64,000 bases of DNA from a bacterium (GCA_027064085.1 JAMOQH010000157.1:706-64705); one strand, 5' to 3'. Shown: positions 4,701 through 42,062, counted from the first letter of the stretch. The notes: generated by a model not told the origin, from the sequence alone. Translations and numbers: made by a program.

Positions 4701-5063
4701 ATTGATTTCTTGTTCTATTTTAATTTCATCATAATCATTTTTGTTTATTTCTGGTATTTTTTTAAAAAGAGCTTCTAGAGTAATTATTGGTATTGAATTT
4801 TCAACAAATATTTTATAAAGACTAGAAGTTTCCTCTATAAATTTTTCGTAATCAAAAAATTGATTATTTTCTAATATATTTTTATATAAAATATTGCTTT
4901 TTTTCTTTATTTTTAAAAATTCAGCAAATAAATCAATTTCAGTTTTTACTTTTTCAGCTACTTTATTACTAGGAACAATAATCGCAAACTTTTTAATCTC
5001 TTTTATATTTTTTAAAAGATAATAAACAGGAGCAGGATTTAATATTGATTGTATATTTCTCAT
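1752..5063 (-). CDS. mfd: transcription-repair coupling factor Mfd
   Basis: 1103 aa. Superfamily-2 helicase core with Walker A 'CGDVGFGKTEVAMRAAF' and 'LLIIDEEHKFGV', plus 'LAMTATPIPRTL'. A CarD/TRCF-type RNAP-interacting region ('FVVHTNYGIGKY') precedes the helicase, and a TRCF C-terminal domain follows. Confidence 0.9.
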   Translation of the reverse strand: MRNIQSILNPAPVYYLLKNIKEIKKFAIIVPSNKVAEKVKTEIDLFAEFLKIKKKSNILYKNILENNQFFDYEKFIEETSSLYKIFVENSIPIITLEALFKKIPEINKNDYDEIKIEQEINVDNFRRKLLDLGYRYEVPVEEKGCFQIKGGIIDVFVPYYQNPIRIELFGDEIESIRFFDADFQTTIEEIKSFKLISSIRFDFTDNNIENFKKYINSEFENEIISYDKLDKLLSLIEEKNISQELIEYAPFFYKDPTTVFTLIKKKYKNIFLYDTNNIAQEIDEIYKVNKSEIYYDLKTLKTILDNNSKNSKKIFQISPIQDGTKQTIVLNSEITSPYRIILQEPKTYFRLSKLIEDNLKQDKKVIIFYVVEERKQKIEKILNQLDLLSSGIIWKTGLLKDAFQTNEEIFLSDYLILGVYSPPASTKRMKNIISSFSDLNKGDFVVHTNYGIGKYIGISSKTINGNITDFLEIDYAKGDKLFLPVYNMSLLYKHSSSETTTKLDSFRSKAWENRKRRIKKSIEKIAKELIQLYASRMTARGYAFTQNDELYDAFVSEFPYILTVDQEKTINEIMGDMENIKPMDRLVCGDVGFGKTEVAMRAAFKAVADNKQVAILAPTTVLSFQHYLTFKKRFSNFPIEINFISSFKSVKDKKIIFEQLKRGKIDILIGTQAILAKMVNFKSLGLLIIDEEHKFGVKDKEKLRELKLNIDTLAMTATPIPRTLNFSLSGIRDLSIINTPPKNRKSVKTIVVRKNPKKLKEAISFELDRGGQVFYIHNRIATIYQEADYLLELFPNIKLAIAHAELAKSKLEKLMMEFYDGKFDLLLSTNIIESGIDIPNANTMIIDRADNFGLASLYQLRGRVGRAERQGYCILQLPKKGKITSIAERRLSVISRYTDLGSGFQIALQDMEIRGAGTLLGFAQKGHVDEVGYETYMNFLKEALAELKGDKKSSVDFKTELNTAFSALIPASYIEDEFTRLSFYKSLSNSIDDTEVDEITEELRDRFGVFPEELINFLNLVKIKIRAMKYKISKITISRAIIYMILDDPDLLDLVSLMPFLNKYPNIKFGQKNDITITSQFSNLEQALDYFNKIIDGLMIKLD

Positions 5064-5097
5064 AATTTACCAAAAATAAATAATAAAAGCAAAATAA

Positions 5098-6084
5098 CTA
5101 TTCTTTTTTAATTTTATTTATTTCTCCTTTTGATAATCCTGTTAATTCCATAATTTTATTAATATCTGTTTTAGTATTTATTAATAATTTCACTAAATTT
5201 ACAATTTGTTTTTTAGCTTTTTCCTCTCTCTCAAGAGCTTTTTCTTTTTCTTTTTGAGCTTTTTCTATCTTTTCTTTAGCTTCTTCAAGACCTTTTTGTA
5301 TCCCTTTGTTTTCAGCTGTGCTTAGTACAGCATACCAATCTCGGTATTCCTTTAAACTTGCTAGATATTTGTTTTGGTCTTTTTTATCCATATTTACAAA
5401 TTCTGCTTTATTAAAAGCATCTTTTATCACTTTATCATCATTAAATATCTTGGGAATTTCATTTAGAGAATCTAAATTATTTAAAAAATAAAACCATTTA
5501 TCCAAATATGTATTTAATTCATTTTCTCTTTTGGTAAATTTAGGCATCTCTACAAATACATAATTTAATTTATCGTAAAATACATCATTATTCTGGTCTT
5601 TTAACTTCACATAATGAAGATAATCTTTATTATTGTTTTCTTTAAACTCAAAATCAAGTATTCCTATACAATAAACAGCACTTAGTTTATAGTCCCAACT
5701 CACCTTTCTTGGACTTCCATCTCTTGTTAATGCAGTTCCATCGTAATATAAGCCTTTTAAACCTTGCTCCTGTATTAAAATACTTGAATAATATACCATT
5801 CTATCTTTAAAATAGGTTTGCTCTGCTCTTTGCAATTCTACAAGTATGTGATTATTGTCTTCGTCAAGGCAGTAAATATCAAAAACGGTATTCCTGTCTC
5901 TTTTGCTTAAACCCAGCTTTTCTAAGTTTTTAAACTCTAAATCAACTATTTTAGCCCTATTTTCAAGCTCCAAAAAAGCATTGATAAAAGATATAAGCTG
6001 TGGTTTACTTCCTTCTTCACCAAATAGTTTTTTAAAACCATAATCTGTGAATGGATTTATATATTTTGATGTTAAACACATCAT
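5098..6084 (-). CDS. Rpn-family recombination-promoting nuclease / PD-(D/E)XK putative transposase
   Basis: The N-terminus 'YINPFTDYGFKKLFGEE' is the hallmark of the Rpn/YhgA-like PD-(D/E)XK 'putative transposase' family. A 'DIYCLDEDNNHILVELQ' nuclease-core-like stretch follows. The tail is a Lys/Glu-rich coiled coil. The gene sits 34 bp upstream of mfd on the same strand. Confidence 0.75.
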   Translation of the reverse strand: MMCLTSKYINPFTDYGFKKLFGEEGSKPQLISFINAFLELENRAKIVDLEFKNLEKLGLSKRDRNTVFDIYCLDEDNNHILVELQRAEQTYFKDRMVYYSSILIQEQGLKGLYYDGTALTRDGSPRKVSWDYKLSAVYCIGILDFEFKENNNKDYLHYVKLKDQNNDVFYDKLNYVFVEMPKFTKRENELNTYLDKWFYFLNNLDSLNEIPKIFNDDKVIKDAFNKAEFVNMDKKDQNKYLASLKEYRDWYAVLSTAENKGIQKGLEEAKEKIEKAQKEKEKALEREEKAKKQIVNLVKLLINTKTDINKIMELTGLSKGEINKIKKE

Positions 6085-6745
6085 TCCTCCTCTGGCTCTT
6101 TATGCAATTGCCCTAGTATATTATAACTTATATTTGGGATTATGCAAGATTTTTTATGTGATTTTATTGATGTATTAAATACTTATCAACAACAAAATAG
6201 TAAAGAGGAAAAGAACTACTTAAAACGAGAGTAATTTATCTCTTTTTAAAGAGATATTAGTAGTGTCAGTGGAAGAATACTGTAATTTGCACTATTTTAT
6301 TAGTTGTAACAATAGGTTAGAAAATATATTAAGTTTTATAAAAAAAATATTGAGTCAACTATAAATAATGATTTTATTTTTTAACCCATATTTCCTTTTT
6401 TTATTAAGGAGCATTGTTTTTGTAGTAATAAATGCTGTATTTAGTGGAAGAATTGCAAATAACTCTCTTGCAACTCTTAAAGCAACTCCACAGACATAAT
6501 CTTGATATAATTCATAAAATTTAGCTTTAGTCATATTTTTTTCAGATACCTTTCCACTTTTATTTATAAAAGTTAGCTTATTTTTGTGAAGAAAACACTT
6601 AAAGGTGTTTGATGAACCTTAATAATATTTAAATTTATACTAACGGAATAATAAAACGGTAGAAAATAAACACTTTTCTATAAATTTACTTAAAAAATAA
6701 ATATTAATGTGTTATAATGTTGCTCATTAAAGTTATGGAGGTTTT

Positions 6746-24246: not shown

Positions 24247-26550
24247 CTATTTTTCTAGTTTTCTTGCTTTAATTTTAACTGCTCTGTTTGAATCAGTGAA
24301 AATCAAATAGGAGTTACCCTTTTTAATGATTTTCCATATATCTTTGTTTTTTAATTTTCTGTTTTTAAATACTTTTAAAGTATTAGCATTTTTATCAAAA
24401 ATAATTAATCCATCATTTTGAGTACCAAGAAATATTTTATTATTTGAATAATTTAATGCTGTTACAAAATTTCTTTTAATTTTAGAAACATAAAGAATAT
24501 AGGATTTATTTGTATTTCTATCGTATGCCGTTACAATACCTTTATAATGAGCTCTATAAACAACATTATTGGCAGTAATTGTTGCAATTATAGGATGAAT
24601 ACCTTTTGCAACAAATTTACTATCTTGGTCACCATTATACATTCTGAGTCTTAATTGTAATTCTCTGTTTTTATTTAAAAAACCATTATCTCTAACCCAT
24701 AATTGAACAGCATCCTTAGGATCATTCTGAGAAATTTCTCTTGGCTTTTTAACAAATCCAAATTTAAAAATCATTCTTTTAAACCATGGCTTTAAATTGT
24801 TAGGTGTATTTTTTGTAAATTTAAATTCAACTTCAGGATCAAAATCACCAATTGCTTCACCCATTCTAGCATAAGCTGTATAAGTCTTTTTGTTCCCTAC
24901 TGAATATAAATTTAAAAGATTATAAGCTTTTCTTTTATCAACAGTAGTATAATAAATATCCTTTAAATTATCTTTCTGAACATCTTCCATACCATTAAAA
25001 TTCATAGCCATTTTTACTCTTTTAAGCTTTATATTGCTCTTTAAATTAACTCTCCATGAATAATTTTGGTTTACTAAAATATATAATTTTCTTGTTGTAA
25101 TTACAGCAATTTTTATTTGATTATTTTCTTTGTAAACAAAAACATTTACTATAGTTTCATTTCTTCTTAATCTTACATTATTATTAAAAATATTTCTAGC
25201 TTCCTGATTATTTGGCATTTTCACAATAATAGCTTTTTTATAAACTCTTACTTTTGTAACAGAGCTATCATATCTTTCATGTGCACCATTTACAGAAAAG
25301 TTTATATGTGTTGATTTATTGGTTTTTCTTACATCAGATAATCTTAAAGTTTTCATAGCACCTTTATAAGTTAATTTCCAAGTGCCATTTCTGTATCTTT
25401 CATGAGCTGCAATATAATTTACAGGACCATATACTTGTTGAAATATAATTTCGTATCCCTTAAAGTCATTTATGGAAATACCACAGTAGTTTCCACCAGT
25501 TCGGTATCCACCTTTTCCATTTGTAGTGATATCACACAAATAAATGTAGCTTCCACCAAGCATTGGCTTATCTTCTTTTGGTGCTTGAACAATGACAGTA
25601 TCATTAATTCCTAGTTTTTTTTTCATCCATTTATGAAATTTACCATTAATTTTTAAATTTCCTGATTTTGTTAAGCTACCATTAGTTTTTTTCATTAATA
25701 AATAGAAACTATATTTTCCTTGCTTAGGTTTTGTATTTACAACAGATAAAACTTTATTGCCTGCATTATTTTTTACCATATAGTAAAAATCACCAAATCC
25801 ATTTCCTTTAACATCATACATACCTACACTATTTAAAATAAGTTGATATCTATTTTTTAATTTTTTATTAAAAAACTTTTTGTATGAGTTACCATTATTT
25901 AAAAATAAATATGCTTTTGAAGATGTTAATGCAAATAAGAATTTACTTCCATTTTGATTTGTATAAAAACCTGCTCTTAATACTTTTCCATCAACTAATC
26001 CTTCAGCTATTTTAACTGCATTTGGTTTAACTAATTGTAAAGGAGGTCTTTTAGATGTTTTATTTACAACATTAACATTTTGATTTAAATGTTTAACTTT
26101 ATTTGTCATCCATTTATGAAATTTTCCATTGACTTGTAAGTTTCCAGATTTAACAACAGAGCCATTATTTCTTAAGGCCACTATATAAAAACTATATTTT
26201 CCTTTTTTGGGTCTTGTATTAACAACATATAGTGTTTTTTTATTATTAGATTTTGTTGCATACCATAAATCTAAAGAACCATTTTTATCTATATCGGTAA
26301 GGCCTGCAGATCTAAACAATGGTGTTTCAGTATTTTTAAAAGTTTTTGCAAAAAACTTATTAAAATTAGAACCGTGTTTAATGAATAAGTAGGCTCCACT
26401 AGAAGTAATTGCAAATAGCTTTTGACTTCCATCACTTGCATAAGAAGCAGCTAGAACTTTACCATTTGTTAAGTTTTTAGCTTGATTCATAGCATTATTA
26501 CCAAGAATTGTTAAGCTAAACATCAACATAAACAACAATAATTTACTCAT
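24247..26550 (-). CDS. large secreted protein with internal tandem duplication, hypothetical
   Basis: 767 aa with a signal peptide. Two ~145-aa direct repeats, e.g. '...LYVVNTRPKKGKYSFYIVALRNNGSVVKSGNLQVNGKFHKWMTNK' versus '...LSVVNTKPKQGKYSFYLLMKKTNGSLTKSGNLKINGKFHKWMKKK'. The C-terminal half carries beta-propeller-like repeats. Confidence 0.5.
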   Translation of the reverse strand: MSKLLLFMLMFSLTILGNNAMNQAKNLTNGKVLAASYASDGSQKLFAITSSGAYLFIKHGSNFNKFFAKTFKNTETPLFRSAGLTDIDKNGSLDLWYATKSNNKKTLYVVNTRPKKGKYSFYIVALRNNGSVVKSGNLQVNGKFHKWMTNKVKHLNQNVNVVNKTSKRPPLQLVKPNAVKIAEGLVDGKVLRAGFYTNQNGSKFLFALTSSKAYLFLNNGNSYKKFFNKKLKNRYQLILNSVGMYDVKGNGFGDFYYMVKNNAGNKVLSVVNTKPKQGKYSFYLLMKKTNGSLTKSGNLKINGKFHKWMKKKLGINDTVIVQAPKEDKPMLGGSYIYLCDITTNGKGGYRTGGNYCGISINDFKGYEIIFQQVYGPVNYIAAHERYRNGTWKLTYKGAMKTLRLSDVRKTNKSTHINFSVNGAHERYDSSVTKVRVYKKAIIVKMPNNQEARNIFNNNVRLRRNETIVNVFVYKENNQIKIAVITTRKLYILVNQNYSWRVNLKSNIKLKRVKMAMNFNGMEDVQKDNLKDIYYTTVDKRKAYNLLNLYSVGNKKTYTAYARMGEAIGDFDPEVEFKFTKNTPNNLKPWFKRMIFKFGFVKKPREISQNDPKDAVQLWVRDNGFLNKNRELQLRLRMYNGDQDSKFVAKGIHPIIATITANNVVYRAHYKGIVTAYDRNTNKSYILYVSKIKRNFVTALNYSNNKIFLGTQNDGLIIFDKNANTLKVFKNRKLKNKDIWKIIKKGNSYLIFTDSNRAVKIKARKLEK

Positions 26551-30899: not shown

Positions 30900-31667
30900 T
30901 TATATATTCTTAATTTTTTCTAAATCATCTTCTGTAAAATTTAAAAATAAGATAGATTTTTCTTTATTCCATAAAAATAATGAATTGTTATCTTCTATTG
31001 TAAATAAAATGTATTTATTTGTTTCTTCTGTAACTTTTTGTTTTTTAATAAAAACTTTTAATTTATTAATAGAGTCTTGATTTATTTTCAATGGCTCTAT
31101 CGTTGATATAATAATTCCTTTATATTGTGCTTCCCTTTTAATATATTGCTTAAAAAAAGGAAAAGAATTATCATCATTTATAAAAAGTTTTTGATAATTG
31201 GAAATAGAATCTATTTTATTTTTAGGAAGTTTTATTTTAGTATTTGCTACAATTTTTAATTTATTTAAATCACATAATGGCAAACTTACTATGTAAATAT
31301 ACTCATTAGACAAAATTACAACTTTACCTGCTACTTGATAAGCGAATTCAGATTTATCAAATTTGCCGTAACTGCTATCTCTTGCAATTGTAAATTCAGA
31401 ATAAGCATAAAGAGCTGTCTTATATTTATAGCGATAAATCTCTAGATTTTTATCATATTTTGCATTAATAAATTCTGTCATTGCATTATTTTCATTATAT
31501 TTTTGATATAAATTTAACTTTTTGGAGTTGTTTTCAATAATTTCTGATGTTTTATTATATTTATTAATTGTTTTAGGGAATACTCCTTGTATTTTTGCTT
31601 TTTTGTTATTATTACAAGAATATACAAGAACAATTAATAACCCAAATAAAAAAAATCTAAACTTCAT
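30900..31667 (-). CDS. lipoprotein, hypothetical
   Basis: Signal peptide plus lipobox 'LVYSCNNNKK'. 255 aa. Confidence 0.4.
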   Translation of the reverse strand: MKFRFFLFGLLIVLVYSCNNNKKAKIQGVFPKTINKYNKTSEIIENNSKKLNLYQKYNENNAMTEFINAKYDKNLEIYRYKYKTALYAYSEFTIARDSSYGKFDKSEFAYQVAGKVVILSNEYIYIVSLPLCDLNKLKIVANTKIKLPKNKIDSISNYQKLFINDDNSFPFFKQYIKREAQYKGIIISTIEPLKINQDSINKLKVFIKKQKVTEETNKYILFTIEDNNSLFLWNKEKSILFLNFTEDDLEKIKNI

Positions 31668-31691: not shown

Positions 31692-33329
31692 TTAAGGGCG
31701 AGGTCTGCAATATTTACTAGGATATGGATAAGAAGTATTTTCATAACAATAAAAATTACTACTATAGCAATCACTATCCGTTTCGCAAGTATCCATCCAA
31801 TACATCATCCAAGAATCATTTACATTCATACCTACACACATAACTTCATTAGGATAAGTTGTATTATCAAGAGCTCCTTGCTGAGGACAATCACTTGCCA
31901 CACATATATTGTAATGTTCAAAAGCCATACATGTTCCATTTTGATAATCACAATCAAAATCTGAATTACACTCTATACCAACTGGTTTCAATGAGCTATC
32001 ATATTTACAGTAACCTAAATCATCCCAGTTATTAACAGAAATACACCTGTTGTATTCCTCACATTTAGAATTATTAATATTACCTTCACTTGGCTTGCAA
32101 GCAGGCTCACACCTTTTGGTCGTTTCTGAATTATTATCGTGATCAACACAAATACTACCTTGTAAACAAAGATTATTTTTATTACACAATCTTCCATTTT
32201 CTAAAGTACCTGTTACAGCACAAGCATTATAACTAATTTCATCAAAAGGATAACATGATTTTCCCACTTCTGAACAAGAATTATCAGAGAACATATCACA
32301 GTTTATGTCTTGAGTAACACATAAACCACTATTATTGTCACAAATTTGATAATCTTTACACTCACTATCACTTAAACATTTAGGCCTACATAATTTATCA
32401 TTATTACAAGTAAAATCACTTCTGCAATCTAAAATATTATTACAAGCTTGTAAACAGTATTTACCACTTAAATAATCACCACATTTATAATCATTACAAA
32501 CACTATCATCTGTACATCTTTTAGTACAATAACCATTTTCTATACCGTTTAAAAGACAAATCATATCACTAGGACACTGACTTTGTGTATTACACATAGA
32601 CCCCATAGTAGGAGGCGGTGTACATGCTCCATCTATACACAGATAACCATCTATATCACATATACCAGTAGGATGCTCTGCACTGCATTTGTCAAGTTCA
32701 ACAATACATAATTCACCGGTTTCATCTTTTTTAAATCCTTGTTTACAATCCCATTCACATTTTGTTGTTTCTTCCCAGGCATCATTTACCCAGTTAATTT
32801 CAAACTGGGTAACAATGATTTCTCCATTTTCAGGAATAGTTATATGCCTATCACATTGAACAAGTTTTGTATTTTCCTTACAATTATCATTTTCACAATG
32901 TTGTGTATCTGTGCATTCTATATTACCACATAACTCAAGGCCATCTTTAACACAATTTAAACCAACAGGATGATAGCCACTTGTACAAATACAAATAGCT
33001 TTATCAAAATCATTTAAATCACATGTTCCATTACCACTACAATCAACAGAATTACATTTAGCTTCCTTTAGAGTTTTACAAACTCCATCATAGCATTCCT
33101 TATCTTTTTCTCTGCAATAGCCAAATTTATTTGTTTCAGAACATTCCAAATCGACTTTTTCACATTTATTTTTAACACATTCATACCCTTCAAGACACTT
33201 AACAGAGTCATCACAATAAGCCTTACTTGCTGTTGAAGCAGCACATGATGATAATAATAAAAAGATAAATATTATTATATAGTGGAAATTATTCCTGATT
33301 ATATTACCTAAATTCATAAAAATACCCAA
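31692..33329 (-). CDS. secreted cysteine-rich repeat protein (EGF-like / myxobacterial-type Cys-rich repeats)
   Basis: 545 aa with a signal peptide. Many Cys residues (on the order of 70 by eye) fall in recurring C-x-C-x(n)-C-x-G-x-C units, e.g. 'CEKVDLECSETNKFGYCREKDKECYDGVCK', 'CNSVDCSGNGTCDLNDFDKAICICTSGYHPVGLNC'. Confidence 0.6.
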   Translation of the reverse strand: MGIFMNLGNIIRNNFHYIIIFIFLLLSSCAASTASKAYCDDSVKCLEGYECVKNKCEKVDLECSETNKFGYCREKDKECYDGVCKTLKEAKCNSVDCSGNGTCDLNDFDKAICICTSGYHPVGLNCVKDGLELCGNIECTDTQHCENDNCKENTKLVQCDRHITIPENGEIIVTQFEINWVNDAWEETTKCEWDCKQGFKKDETGELCIVELDKCSAEHPTGICDIDGYLCIDGACTPPPTMGSMCNTQSQCPSDMICLLNGIENGYCTKRCTDDSVCNDYKCGDYLSGKYCLQACNNILDCRSDFTCNNDKLCRPKCLSDSECKDYQICDNNSGLCVTQDINCDMFSDNSCSEVGKSCYPFDEISYNACAVTGTLENGRLCNKNNLCLQGSICVDHDNNSETTKRCEPACKPSEGNINNSKCEEYNRCISVNNWDDLGYCKYDSSLKPVGIECNSDFDCDYQNGTCMAFEHYNICVASDCPQQGALDNTTYPNEVMCVGMNVNDSWMMYWMDTCETDSDCYSSNFYCYENTSYPYPSKYCRPRP

Positions 33330-33393: not shown

Positions 33394-34602
33394 TTATTTT
33401 TTAATATCTTTCACTGCCAATACAGCCATACTTGAGGCCACCTGAATATTGTAGCCCCCTGTATCTCCATCTATATCAAGAACTTCTCCTGCAAAGTATA
33501 GCCCTTTTACAAGTTTACTTTCCATAGTTTTAGGATTTATCTCTTTGATATTAATTCCACCTGCTGTTGCCATACCTGAAGGAGAAATTTTATATATTTT
33601 ATTTTTATATTCTGTTAACATTCTAAGCAAAGATTCTCTCATTTTTTTATTTATATCTGCAATTTTAATATTTTCATCTATATTTATAATATTTAATATT
33701 TTTAGTATAAATCTAGTTGGTAAATTATATTTTTTTAAATAATTTTTTAATAATCTCCTACCGTTTTCTTGTTGTGTGTGTAATAAATCGTCTTTAACTT
33801 CACTTTTACTAAATCCAACAAAGTTAATTTGTAAATAATAGCCTACTTTTGCATACCTAGATATATTTAATATTACCGGCCCTGATAAATTTCTATGTGT
33901 TAATAATAAATCATTTTTTAATGTAGCTATTCTTTTATTATTCTCATTTAAGATTATTATTTCAACATTTTTAAATGAAATACCACTAATATCTTTAAAT
34001 TGATAATTTTCTATGAAAATTGGAGATAATGCTGGCTTAGGCTCAATTATTGTATGCCCAAAATATTTTGCGAATTTATAACCATCTCCCGTACTACCGG
34101 TATGGGGATATGTTATTCCACCTGTTGCAATCAACACATTTTTAGAGTAAAAAACTCCGTTATTTATTATAAAATTATTACTATATTCAATAGATTCAAC
34201 TTTTTGATTTACAAATATATCCACATGGTTTTTTCTGCACAAATCATATAATAAAGAGACTACATCTCCTGCTTTTTTGCTTTCGGGAAATACCTTTCCA
34301 TCATCTCTAATGTATAAATTCAATCCATTATCTTTGTAAAAACTCATGAGGTCAGTCGGAGTAAAATTATATAAAGAATTTCTCAAAAACTTATTGTTTT
34401 TACCATATTTTGTTAAAAATTCACTTATCTCATCAGAATTTGTAATATTACATTGACCCGCACCAGAAATTAGAATCTTTCGTCCTAGCTTACCGTTCTT
34501 TTCAAGAAGAGCAACTTGTAACCCCTTTTCTGCTCCCTTTATTGCCCCTATAAGTCCTGCTACTCCACCACCTATTATAATTAAGTCATATAGTTTATTC
34601 AT
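33394..34602 (-). CDS. HI0933/BaiN-family NAD(P)/FAD-dependent flavoprotein (aminoacetone-oxidase-family FAD-binding enzyme)
   Basis: 'YDLIIIGGGVAGLIGAI' dinucleotide-binding motif. 402 aa. 'GGITYPHTGSTGDGY' and the C-terminal 'GLYFAGEVLDIDGDTGGYNIQVA' are family-typical. Confidence 0.8.
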   Translation of the reverse strand: MNKLYDLIIIGGGVAGLIGAIKGAEKGLQVALLEKNGKLGRKILISGAGQCNITNSDEISEFLTKYGKNNKFLRNSLYNFTPTDLMSFYKDNGLNLYIRDDGKVFPESKKAGDVVSLLYDLCRKNHVDIFVNQKVESIEYSNNFIINNGVFYSKNVLIATGGITYPHTGSTGDGYKFAKYFGHTIIEPKPALSPIFIENYQFKDISGISFKNVEIIILNENNKRIATLKNDLLLTHRNLSGPVILNISRYAKVGYYLQINFVGFSKSEVKDDLLHTQQENGRRLLKNYLKKYNLPTRFILKILNIINIDENIKIADINKKMRESLLRMLTEYKNKIYKISPSGMATAGGINIKEINPKTMESKLVKGLYFAGEVLDIDGDTGGYNIQVASSMAVLAVKDIKK

Positions 34603-34603
34603 C

Positions 34604-35896
34604 TTAAAACATATACTTTAATTCAAAAAAGAATCTACTAAATTCTTCAAGCCGCCCAAATCTTGTACCACTAGCTCCTCTAAAATTTATTACACCTATG
34701 TAAGATTTTAATTGGCTTGATATATTCCAAGAAGCAAACAATAAATTCATCATATTTAAATCTAATAAATCAGCAGAACCTAAAAATTGAAAACTTAACA
34801 TTGGAGTAAATGAATATCTTATTCTGTAAATAGTGCTATATGTATTTATTCTTGATACAAAAATATCATCTCCAAGCATAGGACTCAAACTATCATACTC
34901 TAACTGCCTGTTGTAATTTAATAATCTTGTGTAAGATATTTGTAAAGAAATAGATAAACCATTAGAAAATTCTTTTTCAAAGCCAAATGCTGTTTTTATA
35001 TTTCTATTTTTAATACTAACATCTTTACCAATTTCATCTTCTGTATGATGATATGCTAATTCAAAAAGCCAAACTGTATCAAATAATATTGTTTCAAAAT
35101 CTAAACCCATTACTTGTAGCTTTTTGTATTCTGGAGTAAATGTTGCCACATTCATATCAACAACAACAGAAAAATTTCTATCATATCCTTTAAAATAATT
35201 TAATGAAAAATCAGTATCTTCTCCTACCTCAAATGTAATTTTAGCACCAATTTCAGTATTGGTAATATTTCTTGATGAATGTTTTGCTATTGTTTTAGTT
35301 AGTGGCCCCATTTGATTTGGTAATTCCATTTTATTTATAGGAGCAATTGGAAGAAATACTGTTTCTAATGTTGCAATATCAAAAAGATTAAAATCTAATT
35401 TTAAGGCATCAACAGCAACTCTATAGTTCTCTTTTTCTGCACTCATAGTCATAAAATTCCATGGAGAAATAACATCAAGTGCCCCACCCCATTCAAATTT
35501 TCCCCAAAAAATATACTGACGCCCTAATTTTAAATCAAGGAACCCTCCTATATCTCTAATCCCTATATAACCTTCTTTAAAATAAGTTGTCATGCCATCT
35601 GAATTCAAAGAAGTTGGTTCTTGTTCTAAAATTTTAAAATCATAATCAAATTCTAATATTGTATTAAAATAAATATCTTTAGTTACATCGTTATTAAACC
35701 TTAATTGTAAAGTTAAACCACCTCTATCATATATAAATTTATCTTTTTTTAATTTTTGATTACTCCAATTTATGTCAGACATAGCTCCACTAATATCAGT
35801 ATAATTGTAGTCCTTGATATAACCTGATATTAAATTATTTTCTGCAAATAAATTAACAGTAAATATAAAAAATGCCAAAATAGGTATTATTCTCAT
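34604..35896 (-). CDS. putative outer-membrane beta-barrel protein, hypothetical
   Basis: Signal peptide 'ILAFFIFTVNLFA'. Alternating hydrophobic strands. C-terminal aromatic residue ('...ELKYMF'). 1-bp gap to the flavoprotein gene. Confidence 0.35.
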   Translation of the reverse strand: MRIIPILAFFIFTVNLFAENNLISGYIKDYNYTDISGAMSDINWSNQKLKKDKFIYDRGGLTLQLRFNNDVTKDIYFNTILEFDYDFKILEQEPTSLNSDGMTTYFKEGYIGIRDIGGFLDLKLGRQYIFWGKFEWGGALDVISPWNFMTMSAEKENYRVAVDALKLDFNLFDIATLETVFLPIAPINKMELPNQMGPLTKTIAKHSSRNITNTEIGAKITFEVGEDTDFSLNYFKGYDRNFSVVVDMNVATFTPEYKKLQVMGLDFETILFDTVWLFELAYHHTEDEIGKDVSIKNRNIKTAFGFEKEFSNGLSISLQISYTRLLNYNRQLEYDSLSPMLGDDIFVSRINTYSTIYRIRYSFTPMLSFQFLGSADLLDLNMMNLLFASWNISSQLKSYIGVINFRGASGTRFGRLEEFSRFFFELKYMF

Positions 35897-35908
35897 GATT
35901 TCCTTATT

Positions 35909-36643
35909 TTATAAAGTTTTTAAATATCTTGTTGTAAATATCTTTGAAGAGATTTTCTTTATTTTTATATTTGTTAATATAATTTCAGCCTTAACGCCCT
36001 CATCAAGGTCACTTGTTTCCATTTTAGTAATAAAATTAACATTATTTATCTTTTTTGATTCTAAAACAGTTTGTATTCTTCTTTTTTTGCCATCTTTACC
36101 AAAAAATTCTGTTTTAACAATAATGTTTTTTTTCTTGTTAATATTCAATATAAGTTTTTTATAACCTGTAATTTCTATGGTTTTATCAGATTTAGCAATA
36201 GCTTCAACAGTAACAATACTATTTTCTTCTTTTAATAATTTGTAATTCCATAATTCAACTCTTGGTTTTAACAAATAAAGAGACAAAAAATCTCTTAACA
36301 TAAAATTATCACCATTAGCAGGAACCTTTTTAACTCTTCTTAGTGCTCTTAAATAAATATACCTTTTATCTTTTAGGTTTTTATTACAATGAGCTAAAAA
36401 AGCCATCCCTTTCATGTGAGAAGGAAAAGTAAATATTGCTAAAATTTTTTGTCCATCTTTAGTATCAATAGCTTTGACTGTCATTTTTTTTATTAGGCTT
36501 TCCTTATTTCCTCTTTTTAAATCTAATTGCATATTTGCAGAAAATCCTGTCCAAGACATATTTTTTAAAATATTTTCTATATTTGATTCATAAGAAAATA
36601 ATTGGAGATTAAACATAAAAACAAATAAAATCAAAAACTTCAT
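35909..36643 (-). CDS. LolA-like outer-membrane lipoprotein-sorting family protein
   Basis: 244 aa with a signal peptide. The overall pattern resembles the 'outer membrane lipoprotein-sorting protein' (LolA-fold) family: 'KKMTVKAIDTKDGQKILAIFTFPSHMKGMAFL...RYIYLRALRRVKKV'. Confidence 0.45.
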   Translation of the reverse strand: MKFLILFVFMFNLQLFSYESNIENILKNMSWTGFSANMQLDLKRGNKESLIKKMTVKAIDTKDGQKILAIFTFPSHMKGMAFLAHCNKNLKDKRYIYLRALRRVKKVPANGDNFMLRDFLSLYLLKPRVELWNYKLLKEENSIVTVEAIAKSDKTIEITGYKKLILNINKKKNIIVKTEFFGKDGKKRRIQTVLESKKINNVNFITKMETSDLDEGVKAEIILTNIKIKKISSKIFTTRYLKTL

Positions 36644-36651
36644 AAAATCTC

Positions 36652-37011
36652 CTATTCAAATAATAATTTTTCAACCAAATAAAAATCACTTAAAAAAGCG
36701 ACTATCATAAATATATTCGACCACAAAATTCTATATTTATTCTTTTTTAAAATAAAATACCAAACATTTAGTATAAATGGATACATTAAATTGAGATATT
36801 TAGGCTCATTTAACTTTATGGAAAGAACTGTAAAAATAGTAATTACTAAAAATGACAACACCGAACCCAAAACAGAATATTTTACAGTAGTTTTTATATT
36901 TTTACTTGAAAGAAATAAAACAATAATAGCAACTATTAATAAAACTCCAGTTGTAAGAAGTGCAGGCTTTAAAACAAATTCTTCTATAAGTTTTAGTATA
37001 CTTTTTAACAT
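36652..37011 (-). CDS. small integral membrane protein, hypothetical
   Basis: 119 aa with three predicted TM helices. Gaps are 8 bp to the LolA-like gene and 3 bp to the Cys-rich lipoprotein gene. Confidence 0.35.
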   Translation of the reverse strand: MLKSILKLIEEFVLKPALLTTGVLLIVAIIVLFLSSKNIKTTVKYSVLGSVLSFLVITIFTVLSIKLNEPKYLNLMYPFILNVWYFILKKNKYRILWSNIFMIVAFLSDFYLVEKLLFE

Positions 37012-37014
37012 TTA

Positions 37015-38016
37015 TTAATCAATATCTAGTATTTCAACATTTTCGGTAATATTACTTTCGGGTAAAACTACTGAAAATTTAACTTGAGGGTCAGTATCTT
37101 CTGCCTTAAAACCAGTTCCATCAACATCACCATAAAGCCAAATATAAAAATCACCATTATAATCAGTTGCAAGTTTAAATGTTCCTTCTTTTGTTGGGTC
37201 TAAAGTAAAGGTATATGGAAAAGTAATAGGTCCGTCTATAAAATGAGCATATTTAGGCATTCCCCCATAAGTATCATTATCATAACCAGCAAGACCTATT
37301 CTTTTTATTTCTTTTGAACCTGTGTAATTAACGGTAATATTCATTTCATAAGATTTTGTAGTTGCTTCACATGTTAATTGGTCTTCACTACAAATAGTAC
37401 CTGCCTCACAAGTTCCACAAGTATTACCACCACAACCATCATCGCCACAAACTTTATCTGTACAATCAGGCACACAATTGTCTTCACAAACACCTTCATT
37501 ACATACTTTATTATCTTCACATTTTCCATTTGGATGTTCTTTAGAACATAAATCTTCATTAGTTGTTTGGTCTTTTAATTCAACATTAAATGTTTCATCT
37601 TTAGTTGGAGTAAAATCAGCTCCTAGATAAACCGGGTCTATACTATGAACTTCTAGTTTTCCGTCTGTTGTATCAACATCACCATAAATAACAACTAAAT
37701 ATTTTTTCCCTTTAAATCCTTCTAGTTTAATTTCAACTTCTTTAGAAAAATCAACTCCACCTGTTGTAAGGGCTTCAGTAGGAAAAGAAAGCGCACTTGC
37801 AGGAGAGCCAGCAGGCATTTGATTTTGTACACTTGTTTCATAATCAAAAAAAGCTGCTCTTACTTGTTTAATTTCAGAACTTCCTTTATAGTCTATTTTA
37901 TAAGTTAAGGTATAGCTTTCTTTATCTGTATTTTTTACAATTTTCTCATCTCCACATGCAGAAAACACAAACATTGAGATTAAAGAAAGAGCTAGAATTT
38001 GGTAAATTCTTTTCAT
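37015..38016 (-). CDS. cysteine-rich lipoprotein (EGF-like Cys cluster)
   Basis: Signal peptide plus lipobox 'VFSACGDEK'. Central cluster 'CSKEHPNGKCEDNKVCNEGVCEDNCVPDCTDKVCGDDGCGGNTCGTCEAGTICSEDQLTCE'. Confidence 0.5.
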   Translation of the reverse strand: MKRIYQILALSLISMFVFSACGDEKIVKNTDKESYTLTYKIDYKGSSEIKQVRAAFFDYETSVQNQMPAGSPASALSFPTEALTTGGVDFSKEVEIKLEGFKGKKYLVVIYGDVDTTDGKLEVHSIDPVYLGADFTPTKDETFNVELKDQTTNEDLCSKEHPNGKCEDNKVCNEGVCEDNCVPDCTDKVCGDDGCGGNTCGTCEAGTICSEDQLTCEATTKSYEMNITVNYTGSKEIKRIGLAGYDNDTYGGMPKYAHFIDGPITFPYTFTLDPTKEGTFKLATDYNGDFYIWLYGDVDGTGFKAEDTDPQVKFSVVLPESNITENVEILDID

Positions 38017-38180
38017 TTTTATACTCCTATTTATAATAAAATAAAAAATTTTTGTTATACATAATGTATAAACTATAGTTTTATAGCTTAATTTATAAAA
38101 TTTGTCAATACAAATAAGTTAAAAAAATACTTGTTTATGTTTATTCTTTGTTTTTATTTCTAGTGAATTTTAATTACTGC

Positions 38181-38209
38181 TTGACAATATTTCCTTTCTA
38201 CAATATAGT
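38181..38209 (+). promoter_or_regulatory. sigma-70-like promoter candidate (TTGACA-N17-TATAGT)
   Basis: TTGACA at 38181-38186, a 17-nt spacer, and TATAGT at 38204-38209. It lies about 110 bp upstream of the inositol monophosphatase start. Confidence 0.4.
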
Positions 38210-38322
38210 TTTTATCTGGTATTAAAGGGGGTGACTAAGCTTAAAAATCGTTTATCCAGATTGAAATAGGGATTACACAAAGGCATTCTAAGGGAATATT
38301 TGTGCATAAAAAAAGGAGAAAA

Positions 38323-39351: not shown

Positions 39352-40539
39352 ATGAATGAAAAAATTAAAAAAAATCTTGAAAGATTAAAAGAACTTAATA
39401 TTGATATGTTTGGTAAAGATTTTTTATTAACTTGGGAAAAAAGTGACGATGAAATCGAAGCGACTATGCTTTTTACTGAAATAATAAAAGAAATGCACAA
39501 AAATAACATCTCAACAAAGGTTTTTGATTCTGGTATTGCTGTTCCTGTATTTAGAGATAATTCTACAAGAACTAGATTTAGCTTTAGCTCAGCTTGTAAC
39601 GCTTTAGGTTTAGGCTTACAAGATTTAGATGAAAAAAAATCACAAATTGCTCATGGTGAAACTGTTAGAGAAACTGCAAATATGATATCATTTTTAGCTG
39701 ATGTTATTGGAATTCGTGATGACTTATATATTGAAGAAGGTGATAGATACCAAAGAGAAGTGGCTTCTGCATTAGATTTTGGCTACAATGAGGGATTATT
39801 ACACCAAAGACCAACTATAATTAATTTACAATCAGATATAGACCACCCAACTCAATCTATGAGTGATTTATCTAAAATTAAGGATCACTTTGGTTCTTTA
39901 GAAAATTTAAAGGGTAAAAAATTAGTAATGTCATGGGCATATTCACCAAGCTATGGAAAACCATTATCTGTTGCTCAAGGAATGATAGGTTTACTTACTA
40001 GATTTGGTATGGATGTTGTTTTGGCTCACCCTGAAGGATATAATGTAATGGATAGTGTTATTGATGTTGCAAAAGAAAATGCTGAAAAGAGTGGTGGTAG
40101 CTTTACTATTAGCCATGATATGAAAGAAGCATTTAAAGATGCTGATGTTGTATGTCCTAAATCTTGGGCTTCTTATTCTGTTATGGAGCAAAGAAGAGAT
40201 TTACTGCATGCACAAGACTTTGACGGACTTGATGCTCTTGAAAAAAGTTGCTTACTTGAAAATGCAGACCACATGAACTGGGAATACACCAAAGAAATGG
40301 AAGCATTAACTAATAATGCACTATACATGCATCCTCTTCCTGCTGATGTAACTGGCTTGAACTGCGAACACGGCGAAGTAACAAGAGAAGTTTTTGATTC
40401 TCACCTAAAAGATACTTATCATCAAGCATCATTTAAGCCTTTTGCTATGATGGCTATGATTTGGTTGAGTAAGTTTGAAAATCCTATAGCAAAAATAGAA
40501 GAAGTTTTAGAAAATAACAAAAAGAGATTAAATAAATAG
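39352..40539 (+). CDS. YgeW-like 'knotted' carbamoyltransferase (ATCase/OTCase superfamily)
   Basis: 'STRTRFSFSSA' carbamoyl-phosphate motif. 'HPLP' motif ('YMHPLPA'). 395 aa, longer than canonical OTCase/ATCase, as in the YgeW subgroup. Confidence 0.65.
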   Translation: MNEKIKKNLERLKELNIDMFGKDFLLTWEKSDDEIEATMLFTEIIKEMHKNNISTKVFDSGIAVPVFRDNSTRTRFSFSSACNALGLGLQDLDEKKSQIAHGETVRETANMISFLADVIGIRDDLYIEEGDRYQREVASALDFGYNEGLLHQRPTIINLQSDIDHPTQSMSDLSKIKDHFGSLENLKGKKLVMSWAYSPSYGKPLSVAQGMIGLLTRFGMDVVLAHPEGYNVMDSVIDVAKENAEKSGGSFTISHDMKEAFKDADVVCPKSWASYSVMEQRRDLLHAQDFDGLDALEKSCLLENADHMNWEYTKEMEALTNNALYMHPLPADVTGLNCEHGEVTREVFDSHLKDTYHQASFKPFAMMAMIWLSKFENPIAKIEEVLENNKKRLNK

Positions 40540-40595
40540 ATAATAGGCTTTTAACGATGATATTAGAGGCCTTGTTGATTTTTTAGGAGAAAAAA

Positions 40596-42062
40596 ATGGC
40601 AAAAAAAACAAGAGAAGAAGTTTTAGAAAACACTATTCAAAGATTTAAAGAAAAGGGACTTATTTTACCCACTTATGAACAAATGAGAAATCCTGAATTG
40701 GTTCCTCAAAAAATTAAAGAAGAGTTAAAAAATATTGGTTTATGGGACTTTAACCCTCTTAATTTATTCAGATTAACATGGAAGAACGATCCTGAAACAG
40801 GAGAATTTGGTAAAGTTAACTATATAGAACTTCCTACTGAATTAACAGGAGTTAAAGCTAAAATATTTGTATTAACTGGTAAATTTTTTCCTACAGGAGC
40901 ACATAAAGTTGGTGCAACTTATGGTCCACTAATAGAAAAATTAATTAATGGAACATTTGATCCAACAACTCAAAAAGCTTTATGGCCTTCTACAGGTAAC
41001 TATTGCCGTGGTGGAGCTTATGATAGTAAACTATTAGGATGTGAAGCTATAGCTATTTTACCCGAAGATATGTCTCAAGAAAGATTTGAATGGTTAAAAG
41101 AAACAGGTGCTGAAATTTTTGCAACTCATGGTTCTGAATCTAATGTTAAAGAAATTTATGACAAAGTTAAAGAATTAATGGCAGAGAGAGGTGATGAAAT
41201 AGTTAATCTTAACCAATTTGCAGAAATAGGAAATCCACTATGGCATTATGCAGTAACAGGGCCTGCTATGGAAGAAGTTTTTGGATACCATAAAGATGAA
41301 AACTCAAGATTTGCAGGTATTTTCTTAACTCAAGGAAGTGCAGGAACACTCGGTGCAGGTGAATACTTAAAAACAGTATTTCCTAATATGAAACTTGGTG
41401 TTGGTGAAGCTGTTCAATGTCCTACTTTATTAAGAAATGGATATGGTTCTCATAGAATAGAGGGAATAGGTGATAAACACATTCCTTGGGTACATAATAT
41501 TAGAAGTATGGACTTTGTTGCAGGTATTGATGATGAACCAAATATGCACATTATGCGTTTGTTCAATGAGCCTGAAGGACATAAATATTTATTAGAACAA
41601 GGTGTTAAACAAGAGTTAATTGACCAACTTCATTTACTTGGAATCTCTGGTATTGCAAATGTTATGGGTGCAATCAAACAAGCTAAATACTATGAAATGG
41701 ATGAAAATGATTTTATTCTTACTATAGGTACAGATTCTATGGAAATGTATCAATCAAGAATGAAAGAAGAACAAGAAAGATTAGGAGATTTTACTCATGA
41801 AGTAGCTGCTATGACTTATTATGGTGACTTAATGGGTTTAGGTACTGATAACATTATTGAGCCTAACTATGTTGAACTTAGAAGAATGCATAATTTAAAA
41901 TATTTTACTTGGATAGAGCAACAAGGTAAAACAGTTGAAGAGTTAGATGCTCAATGGTATGATAGAGATTATTGGACAAGAGAATGGCATAAAGCTGATG
42001 AGTGGGATGCCAAAATTAAAGAATTTAACGCTAGAACAGGTGTTGAAAAGAAATTTTTATAA
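40596..42062 (+). CDS. fold-type II PLP-dependent enzyme (TrpB-like / tryptophan-synthase-beta superfamily)
   Basis: 488 aa. 'FFPTGAHKVGATYG' resembles the TrpB PLP-lysine motif 'HTGAHKxN'. Gly-rich 'TQGSAGTLGAG' is present. 56-bp gap to the YgeW-like gene. Confidence 0.5.
   Translation: MAKKTREEVLENTIQRFKEKGLILPTYEQMRNPELVPQKIKEELKNIGLWDFNPLNLFRLTWKNDPETGEFGKVNYIELPTELTGVKAKIFVLTGKFFPTGAHKVGATYGPLIEKLINGTFDPTTQKALWPSTGNYCRGGAYDSKLLGCEAIAILPEDMSQERFEWLKETGAEIFATHGSESNVKEIYDKVKELMAERGDEIVNLNQFAEIGNPLWHYAVTGPAMEEVFGYHKDENSRFAGIFLTQGSAGTLGAGEYLKTVFPNMKLGVGEAVQCPTLLRNGYGSHRIEGIGDKHIPWVHNIRSMDFVAGIDDEPNMHIMRLFNEPEGHKYLLEQGVKQELIDQLHLLGISGIANVMGAIKQAKYYEMDENDFILTIGTDSMEMYQSRMKEEQERLGDFTHEVAAMTYYGDLMGLGTDNIIEPNYVELRRMHNLKYFTWIEQQGKTVEELDAQWYDRDYWTREWHKADEWDAKIKEFNARTGVEKKFL

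Follow-up and report, generated by a model that had tools for sequence, protein, structure and literature searches.

A putative four-gene envelope module combining a LolA-like protein, a short DUF1302-type barrel and two further conserved partners

Introduction

What does a LolA-like protein do beside an outer-membrane (OM) barrel when the pump that commonly accompanies such proteins is missing from the gene cluster? The question is raised by a bacterial DNA stretch of 64,000 nucleotides (nt; GCA_027064085.1, JAMOQH010000157.1:706-64705), called the window below, in which five co-directional minus-strand open reading frames (ORFs) lie at positions 33394-38016 and encode, in transcription order, proteins of 333, 119, 244, 430 and 402 amino acids (aa). 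A preliminary description of the window had taken these for a lipoprotein, a small membrane protein, a LolA-like protein, an OM beta-barrel and an HI0933 flavoprotein, and these family assignments were right, as judged by Pfam and NCBIfam matches, signal features and an AlphaFold2 (AF2) model of the barrel. It had also suggested that the cluster is a dedicated trans-envelope delivery route for the lipoprotein.

Systems that combine a DUF1302 barrel with a LolA-like protein are spread widely among Gram-negative bacteria, Pseudomonas aeruginosa being one of them, and show clear fitness phenotypes. To our knowledge, no structure or mechanism has been established for them. The comparison of related loci supports the view, on sequence grounds, that the LolA-like protein, the barrel, the small protein and the lipoprotein are a functional unit. 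The four genes recur in unrelated genomic neighbourhoods at 35-45% protein identity, and the arrangement is therefore not a matter of chance.

Conservation of the module

Iterated profiles of each window protein were searched against 33 loci. In the lineage of the window itself (the window, L019 and L021; GC content 26-30%), the order is lipoprotein, small protein, LolA-like protein, barrel and flavoprotein, and identity to the window proteins is, for example, 57% for the lipoprotein in L019 and 83% for the barrel in L021. In the Myxococcota-type loci (about 12 distinct ones, GC content 50-70%), the order is small protein, LolA-like protein, barrel and lipoprotein, and stop and start codons often overlap. 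Here the barrel is 35-44% identical to that of the window, the LolA-like protein 29-42%, and the small protein and the lipoprotein 20-31%, while the surrounding neighbourhoods are entirely unlike that of the window. The preliminary description had named conservation of the gene order in relatives as a check on its reading. The order of small protein, LolA-like protein and barrel is indeed kept, but that of the lipoprotein gene is not, as it comes first in the window lineage and last in the Myxococcota-type loci.

The presence of each gene was tallied in 14 Myxococcota-type loci with enough flanking DNA. The LolA-like gene stands beside the barrel gene in all 14, directly upstream of it and often overlapping its start. 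In 12 of them (not in L013 and L018) the gene for the small protein directly precedes the LolA-like gene, and the lipoprotein is likewise present in 12 (not in L005 and L012); both are found in all window-lineage loci. Every locus with upstream DNA has the pair of LolA-like protein and barrel, with the exception of L009, a locus of a low-GC lineage in which an orphan barrel gene occurs without LolA-like, small-protein or lipoprotein genes and is followed by a convergent radical-SAM gene. L008 is syntenic with L009 downstream of the barrel, and the DNA upstream of its barrel is missing at a contig end. The record that holds L009 (DYRY01000023.1) is titled 'Anaeromyxobacter dehalogenans' but has a GC content of 28%, so that the label looks wrong.

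The barrel subfamily is rare. It forms 22 clusters in a word-indexed collection of 5.8 billion proteins and is present in 11 of 185,579 GTDB species representatives, nearly all of them metagenome-assembled genomes of Myxococcota. A scan of metagenome contigs gave eight loci, mostly duplicates of known ones. When the lipoprotein and the small protein were used in word-based searches, only close relatives and proteins with one of the Cys modules described below were returned, and distant homologues came to light only through searches of the loci.

Genes are densely packed in the AT-rich window and often separated by short gaps only, which is what would be expected if unrelated envelope genes had come to lie side by side in a compact genome. 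However, genomes with a GC content of 50-70% and entirely different flanks have the same four families in one place, at identities of 22-45%. This conservation refutes a fortuitous adjacency, to which a negligible probability is assigned. All-against-all clustering of the loci found no further family conserved across them, catabolic genes included.

According to the preliminary description, LolA-fold proteins of the sorting family normally have an MMPL or RND (resistance-nodulation-division) exporter as a partner, and the window cluster has none. The first statement is commonly true (Porphyromonas, Prevotella, Pseudoalteromonas, Haliovirga). The second agrees with a scan of the larger ORFs of the 64-kb window, which found no RND, MMPL, ABC or BNR genes; the called genes of the related loci included no RND, MMPL, ABC or BNR genes either, and in about 17 loci the module had no pump gene up to a distance of 6-8 kb.

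The missing pump could simply be encoded elsewhere. The pair would then be the outer half of an ordinary MMPL or HAE3-RND system, and the small protein and the lipoprotein would be accessories, for instance in assembly or as pilotin-type factors. Split clusters, with the pump apart from the DUF1302 pair, occur in Pseudomonas stutzeri and P. putida (bioRxiv 10.1101/072470), the clusters of Haliovirga and Pseudoalteromonas include a pump, either accessory can be missing from a locus, and the lipoprotein resembles pilotins. On the other hand, about 17 distinct loci with GC contents from 26 to 70% have no pump gene within 6-8 kb and yet retain the accessories, and the invariant charged residues of the small protein (an intramembrane Asp and a terminal Glu) suggest more than a scaffold. 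Taken together, an unlinked pump is judged to be an unlikely explanation.

The LolA-like protein and the barrel

The LolA-like protein (244 aa; 35909-36643, minus strand) has a type I signal peptide without a lipobox and is predicted to be periplasmic. PF17131 (LolA_like, also known as TP_0789-like) is the only Pfam family above the cut-off (E 5.2e-29, 101.6 bits), whereas PF07044 (DUF1329) stays below it (E 0.0013; 18.5 bits against a cut-off of 23.1). Its matches in the PDB are 3bk5 (E 3.8e-13) and 9tp6, the LolA3 protein of Porphyromonas gingivalis (E 4.3e-5), and the LolA fold is assigned to the 244-aa protein through membership of this family. The canonical LolA family was not matched, and no LolB or LolCDE genes were found near the cluster among the window proteins scanned.

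The barrel (430 aa; 34604-35896, minus strand) has a signal peptide, ends in ...KYMF and is a distant short-form DUF1302 OM channel. Its own match to PF06980 (DUF1302) is a borderline pass (23.8 bits against a cut-off of 23.2), and a weak match to this family is seen in 12 of 20 members of the subfamily. An exhaustive profile search with the barrel among 1.84 billion representative sequences gave 1666 matches at E<=1e-3, 435 at <=1e-10, 35 at <=1e-30 and five at <1e-120. When intermediates from this search were sampled (mostly 416-446 aa), PF06980 was the best Pfam match for all ten, reaching the cut-off in nine. A 412-aa protein from a Haliovirga abyssi plasmid, annotated by NCBI as a DUF1302 family protein, can be aligned with the barrel over the full length of both (24% identity, E 4e-12). 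The preliminary description had seen in the barrel an unusual substitute for a pump. This does not hold, because pairs of DUF1302 and LolA-superfamily proteins have already been described; it is the pump that is the missing piece.

The AF2 model of the barrel has a mean predicted local distance difference test (pLDDT) score of 84 and belongs to a class of about 18 strands that resembles the Occ and AlgE channels; at 7-14% sequence identity, the match reflects an 18-strand architecture and not homology. The best-conserved stretch of the subfamily, RQYIFWGxFEWGG...SPW...MSAEKEN (aa ~126-161), falls in the long loop that joins strands 5 and 6 in the model. Going by the usual topology of such barrels, this would correspond to an L3-type loop. 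Polysaccharide export of the AlgE kind was set aside, as the barrel fits AlgE no better than it fits Occ channels and polysaccharide genes are not linked to it.

Substrate-specific uptake is another explanation that the architecture brings to mind, with an Occ/OprD-like barrel that imports a hydrophobic nutrient and the LolA-like protein as its periplasmic binding protein. In Pseudomonas putida, growth on Tween 20 depends on PP_0765/0766, for which AlphaFold modelling predicts a complex of DUF1302 and DUF1329 (PMC10866462); the two genes are also needed for growth on butyl stearate. In one locus (L003) a gene for a FadL/Toluene_X barrel lies just upstream on the same strand. However, the match to Occ channels is, as said, one of architecture, no catabolic genes are conserved beside the module, and the lipoprotein and the inner-membrane protein would be left unexplained. 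Uptake is therefore considered improbable.

The upstream genes of L003 deserve a remark of their own. Positions 1801-6631 of this 574-kb contig encode a Big_5 protein, the FadL/Toluene_X barrel and a 616-aa protein without a family, directly upstream of the module and on the same strand. These genes and the module may form a larger operon concerned with hydrophobic compounds, an arrangement seen in a single lineage.

The small membrane protein

The 119-aa gene (36652-37011, minus strand) is easily overlooked. On the window's own contigs (L001 and L002), public annotation has a 75-aa ORF on the opposite strand (36791-37018, plus strand) and misses the true gene, while in the relatives L019 and L021 the public calls get its homologue right. 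The 75-aa ORF is a shadow of the real gene: its frame is broken in both of two relatives, and against the same two the 119-aa gene has a ratio of nonsynonymous to synonymous substitution rates (dN/dS) of 0.15-0.31. The 119-aa gene is thus real and under purifying selection, and its position beside the LolA-like gene is conserved in most related loci. No Pfam family was matched above the cut-off.

Family members are about 120-137 aa long and share a C-terminal LLFE. In an alignment of 13 sequences F12, P16, a membrane-embedded D109 and the C-terminal L117-F118-E119 are invariant. There are four hydrophobic segments, with loops 1 and 3 rich in K and R. The protein is therefore probably one with four transmembrane segments and with both termini on the outer face of the inner membrane, the two K/R-rich loops being cytoplasmic. 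The preliminary description was right in calling it a membrane protein, but its count of three helices is probably one too low. The third segment is only weakly hydrophobic in the window copy, which accounts for the count, and is clear in relatives. Two possible origins were compared by hhalign and rejected, namely that the protein is a remnant of an MMPL pump and that it is related to the small protein encoded upstream of MMPL in Pseudoalteromonas; the probability was about 0.1% in each case.

The two-domain lipoprotein

The lipoprotein (333 aa; 37015-38016, minus strand) starts with a signal peptide and the lipobox FSAC, with Cys21 as the lipidation site. Two beta-domains follow, at aa ~34-150 and ~222-333, and each closes with a Y-G-D-V-D-x-x-D-G...D-P motif. 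They are an internal duplication (31% identity, E 1e-8). All 12 remaining Cys are confined to residues 157-216, within an insert of two small disulfide modules (aa 156-217; 37366-37551, minus strand). The AF2 model, built from six sequences only, is of moderate confidence (pLDDT 73) and shows two transthyretin-like sandwiches. The closest fold matches of low root-mean-square deviation are AspS, ExsB and TssJ, all of them OM lipoproteins that bind OM channels; as the transthyretin-like fold is a common one, these matches are treated as a lead only. Sequence searches of Pfam, NCBIfam and the PDB gave nothing significant, the best being a match of one family member to DUF2141 (0.0035) and a PDB match with an E-value of 0.18.

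Homologues have in common the lipobox and the acidic stretch that follows the lipidated Cys at once, C-x0-2-(D/E)(D/E)-(I/L)-x-K. What lies between the two domains differs: a D/E-rich linker in the Myxococcota homologues and about 60 residues of Cys modules in the window lineage. One of these modules, CxPDCxGKxCGDDGCGGxCGxC, is widespread, and in the form CxPDCxxKxCGDDGCGGxxCGxC it is found as tandem copies in P0029, P0031 and P0033, which are secreted proteins unrelated to the lipoprotein. The other, CSxEHPxGxC, is also present in a neighbouring Cys-rich lipoprotein of 545 aa. Since the Myxococcota homologues have an acidic linker at this place and the Cys modules recur in unrelated proteins, the insert is a lineage-specific decoration made of shuffled modules and not a conserved property of the four-gene module. 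The term 'Cys-rich lipoprotein' used in the preliminary description is accordingly correct as to the lipoprotein, but the Cys-rich part is a central insert of about 60 aa found in one lineage. In L031 (8378-9387) the lipoprotein homologue consists of the N-terminal domain only (156 aa) and is directly followed by a Y1_Tnp transposase gene, which suggests that it was shortened by an insertion element.

Could this lipoprotein be the cargo of the module? In such a dedicated surface-delivery route, comparable to Slam/type XI secretion or to the pathway of Bacteroidota, the LolA-like protein would carry the acyl anchor and the barrel would flip or thread the lipoprotein. The gene is linked to the pair in most loci, even if it is first in one lineage and last in the other, and LolA folds are known to bind the acyl chains of lipoproteins. 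Across the same loci the lipoprotein is also the faster-evolving protein, with 22-26% identity compared with 35-44% for the barrel and the LolA-like protein, and its interdomain linker is hypervariable, either acidic and of low complexity or made of Cys-knot modules, as is common in surface-exposed proteins. Finally, the acidic motif after the lipidated Cys resembles K-(D/E)2, the lipoprotein export signal of Bacteroidota (PMC5080379). Against this, the barrel has no homology to Slam/DUF560, the molecules handled by related DUF1302 systems are small and hydrophobic and not lipoproteins, and in L005 and L012 a lipoprotein gene is missing while the other three genes are kept. The acidic motif is an export signal in Bacteroidota only, where surface export is independent of LolA homologues (PMC11885536), and the nearest structural analogues of the lipoprotein domains are OM lipoproteins that face the periplasm. 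A route of this kind is possible but doubtful, and the lipoprotein as cargo is no better supported than the lipoprotein as an OM partner of the barrel.

A bolder variant of the cargo idea, and a quite unlikely one, is that the module needs no pump and is a self-sufficient machine for placing its two-domain lipoprotein across the OM. The LolA-like protein would deliver the acylated N-terminus, and the barrel would flip the lipoprotein to the surface or hold its hypervariable linker in the lumen with one domain on each side, in the manner of RcsF. The small protein with its intramembrane Asp would serve as the element for release or energy coupling.

A proposed mechanism

The best explanation at present, which is held tentatively and with somewhat less than even confidence, is a conserved four-gene envelope module that moves a hydrophobic or acylated moiety. 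Its core would be the LolA-like protein and the barrel, which on the evidence of overlapping genes appear to be translationally coupled in several relatives, joined by the small inner-membrane protein and the OM-type lipoprotein. The LolA-like protein would shield the moiety in the periplasm and shuttle it between the small protein, as a site of docking or hand-over, and the barrel, whose conserved long loop may line or gate the channel. The lipoprotein may sit at the barrel as a lipid-anchored OM partner, by analogy with LptE, MlaA and the pilotins.

Several points weigh against this explanation. L013 and L018 lack the small protein, L005 and L012 lack the lipoprotein, and L009 has an orphan barrel; since such loci exist, neither accessory is strictly required beside the pair. 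In addition, the literature is divided on what DUF1302 systems do, the proposals being efflux, uptake, esterase activity and the export of an envelope component. Lastly, module-bearing genomes may have an unlinked MMPL pump elsewhere, as in the split clusters of Pseudomonas (bioRxiv 10.1101/072470).

Significance

That neither the RND pump nor the BNR propeller is kept in the cluster points to the pair of barrel and LolA-fold protein as the minimal conserved core of these systems. The module also brings in the small inner-membrane protein with its Asp and the two-domain lipoprotein as new candidates for interaction partners, and with four proteins it is compact enough to be co-folded and reconstituted. 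Were the lipoprotein the cargo, this would be a new route of surface-lipoprotein export outside Bacteroidota, Neisseria and spirochaetes; if it were a partner of the barrel, the module would add another pair of barrel and lipoprotein to LptDE and MlaA-OmpC. It is worth noting that routine annotation misses the module, as three of the four genes are unannotated and the small gene is called on the wrong strand on one public contig.

Transcription signals and neighbouring genes

Direct reading of the junctions gives intergenic gaps of 3 (TAA), 8, 12 and 1 nt along the cluster, exactly the spacing from which co-transcription had been proposed. Shine-Dalgarno motifs precede the lipoprotein and LolA-like genes (AGGAG, 8 nt from the ATG of the lipoprotein) and the barrel gene (AAGGA). 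A terminator scan found no terminator-like site on the minus strand within the cluster. Between the cluster and a divergent gene for a suhB-like inositol monophosphatase lies an intergenic region of 285 nt (38017-38301) that is presumed to be the promoter region of the operon. At 26% GC, promoter and terminator scans of this kind are uninformative as a whole; the promoter scan gave 59 sites against 49 expected.

The fifth gene (33394-34602, minus strand) encodes a flavin adenine dinucleotide (FAD) flavoprotein of 402 aa of the HI0933/TIGR00275 family (E 1.6e-120). Because it is separated from the barrel gene by a single nucleotide, the preliminary description had counted it as part of the same unit. 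It is probably co-transcribed with the cluster, but only the loci of the window lineage (L001, L019 and L021) have it after the barrel, and it was rejected as a member of the module. Since none of the Myxococcota-type loci has it beside the module, it can be no more than a co-transcribed passenger and a lineage-specific neighbour.

After the flavoprotein gene there is a gap of 64 nt with a strong promoter-like site (33371-33343, 11 of 12 matches), and then the gene for the second Cys-rich lipoprotein (31692-33329, minus strand; 545 aa, or 541 from the ATG), which has the lipobox LLSSC and EGF-like modules but no solid Pfam family. This lipoprotein is found near the cluster in the window lineage only, with a methyl-accepting chemotaxis protein (MCP) gene between it and the flavoprotein gene there. 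Two further minus-strand ORFs are without a Pfam family, one of 767 aa (24247-26550) and one of 255 aa (30900-31667); the latter adjoins a FecR-domain gene in the relative L021 too. A PD-(D/E)XK family transposase-like gene is located at 5098-6084 (minus strand). On the other side of the cluster and divergent from it, past the suhB-like gene, positions 39352-42062 (plus strand) encode a carbamoyltransferase-like protein of the ornithine transcarbamylase (OTCase) fold (395 aa) and then a 488-aa pyridoxal phosphate (PLP) enzyme of the PALP type, a gene pair that is kept on the window's own contigs.

Comparison with known systems

The closest described systems are those in which a DUF1302 barrel and a DUF1329 protein work with a pump. 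Genes for DUF1302, DUF1329, BNR and RND proteins show cofitness in several Proteobacteria, and export of an envelope component has been proposed (bioRxiv 10.1101/072470). In Castellaniella defragrans, AmeABCD (DUF1302, DUF1329, COG4447 and an HAE3 RND pump) gives tolerance to monoterpenes (PMC6394551), and in a separate study a DUF1302-DUF1329 pair was modelled as a complex with an interface predicted template modelling (ipTM) score of 0.84 (PMC13499233). Like the window module, AmeABCD and the sets of Pseudomonas (PP_0765/0766 with PP_2018/2019) and Shewanella (Sama_1588-1591) have a DUF1302 barrel beside a LolA-superfamily protein in one unit and have been linked to the handling of hydrophobic molecules. 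The differences are considerable. The window barrel is short (430 aa instead of about 540-600 aa) and lies at the Pfam threshold, its LolA-fold partner is a single-domain PF17131 protein of 244 aa in place of a DUF1329 protein of about 450 aa, and the COG4447/BNR propeller and the HAE3 RND pump were not found with it, either among the larger window ORFs or in the related loci. In exchange, the window cluster adds the small protein with four transmembrane segments and the two-domain lipoprotein, which have not been described for systems of the AmeABCD type.

A nearer likeness is found in a cluster of the Haliovirga abyssi plasmid pHIC (L034, 154964-159624), which encodes a short DUF1302 protein, an MMPL pump and an 'outer membrane lipoprotein-sorting protein'. 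The same two families occur there at similar sizes, and the PF17131 protein of this cluster is the best plasmid match of the LolA-like protein of the window. PF17131 proteins are also found with MMPL in iron-regulated operons of Porphyromonas and Prevotella. All of these clusters, and that of Pseudoalteromonas, have the MMPL pump inside, while the window module has none; conversely, the small membrane protein has no homologues in clusters of the DUF1302/MMPL/PF17131 type, whose annotation does not include a two-domain lipoprotein either. L034 lies on a plasmid of Fusobacteriota. In L035 (Pseudoalteromonas plasmid p1), a pair of MMPL and LolA-like genes stands beside recombinase genes of the gamma-mobile-trio and a divergent 392-aa barrel with the motif GKIFWG. 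From these two contexts it follows that such systems can be borne by plasmids or mobile elements.

Among structurally characterised proteins, the LolA3 proteins of Bacteroidota (PGN0947, PDB 9TP6; Fjoh_0605) and the Vibrio parahaemolyticus protein 3BK5 share with the LolA-like protein the PF17131-type fold, a periplasmic location, a type I signal peptide and the fact that they are not the housekeeping LolA. The similarity is low, however (E 4e-5 to 4e-13). LolA3, a PF17131-type protein, binds LolB weakly and does not pair with it (PMC13103446), and its deletion has no phenotype; because LolA3 has no assigned function, no mechanism is transferred from it to the window protein. The canonical Lol pathway (LolA, LolB and LolCDE) differs in that the window protein belongs to PF17131 and not to canonical LolA.

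For the lipoprotein, pairs such as LptD-LptE, OmpC/F-MlaA, the secretin-pilotin systems with AspS or ExsB, and TssJ show an OM lipoprotein that works with an OM channel, and they serve as a working analogy only. With AspS, ExsB and TssJ the window lipoprotein appears to have the transthyretin-like fold in common, but no sequence homology, and no secretin, type VI secretion, Lpt or Mla genes are present with the module. The Slam/type XI translocators (a 14-strand DUF560 barrel with N-terminal TPR) share only the layout of a barrel beside a lipoprotein; the window barrel has no DUF560 or TPR matches and falls into the 18-strand class of DUF1302.

As pairs of DUF1302 and LolA-superfamily proteins are known, and PF17131 proteins are typically found beside MMPL pumps, the LolA-like/barrel pair of the window belongs, as a remote member, to a kind of system that is already known. 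The novelty lies in the absence of the pump from the cluster and in the presence of two extra conserved partners, neither of which is described in the papers searched: the small inner-membrane protein and the two-domain lipoprotein that accompany the pair.

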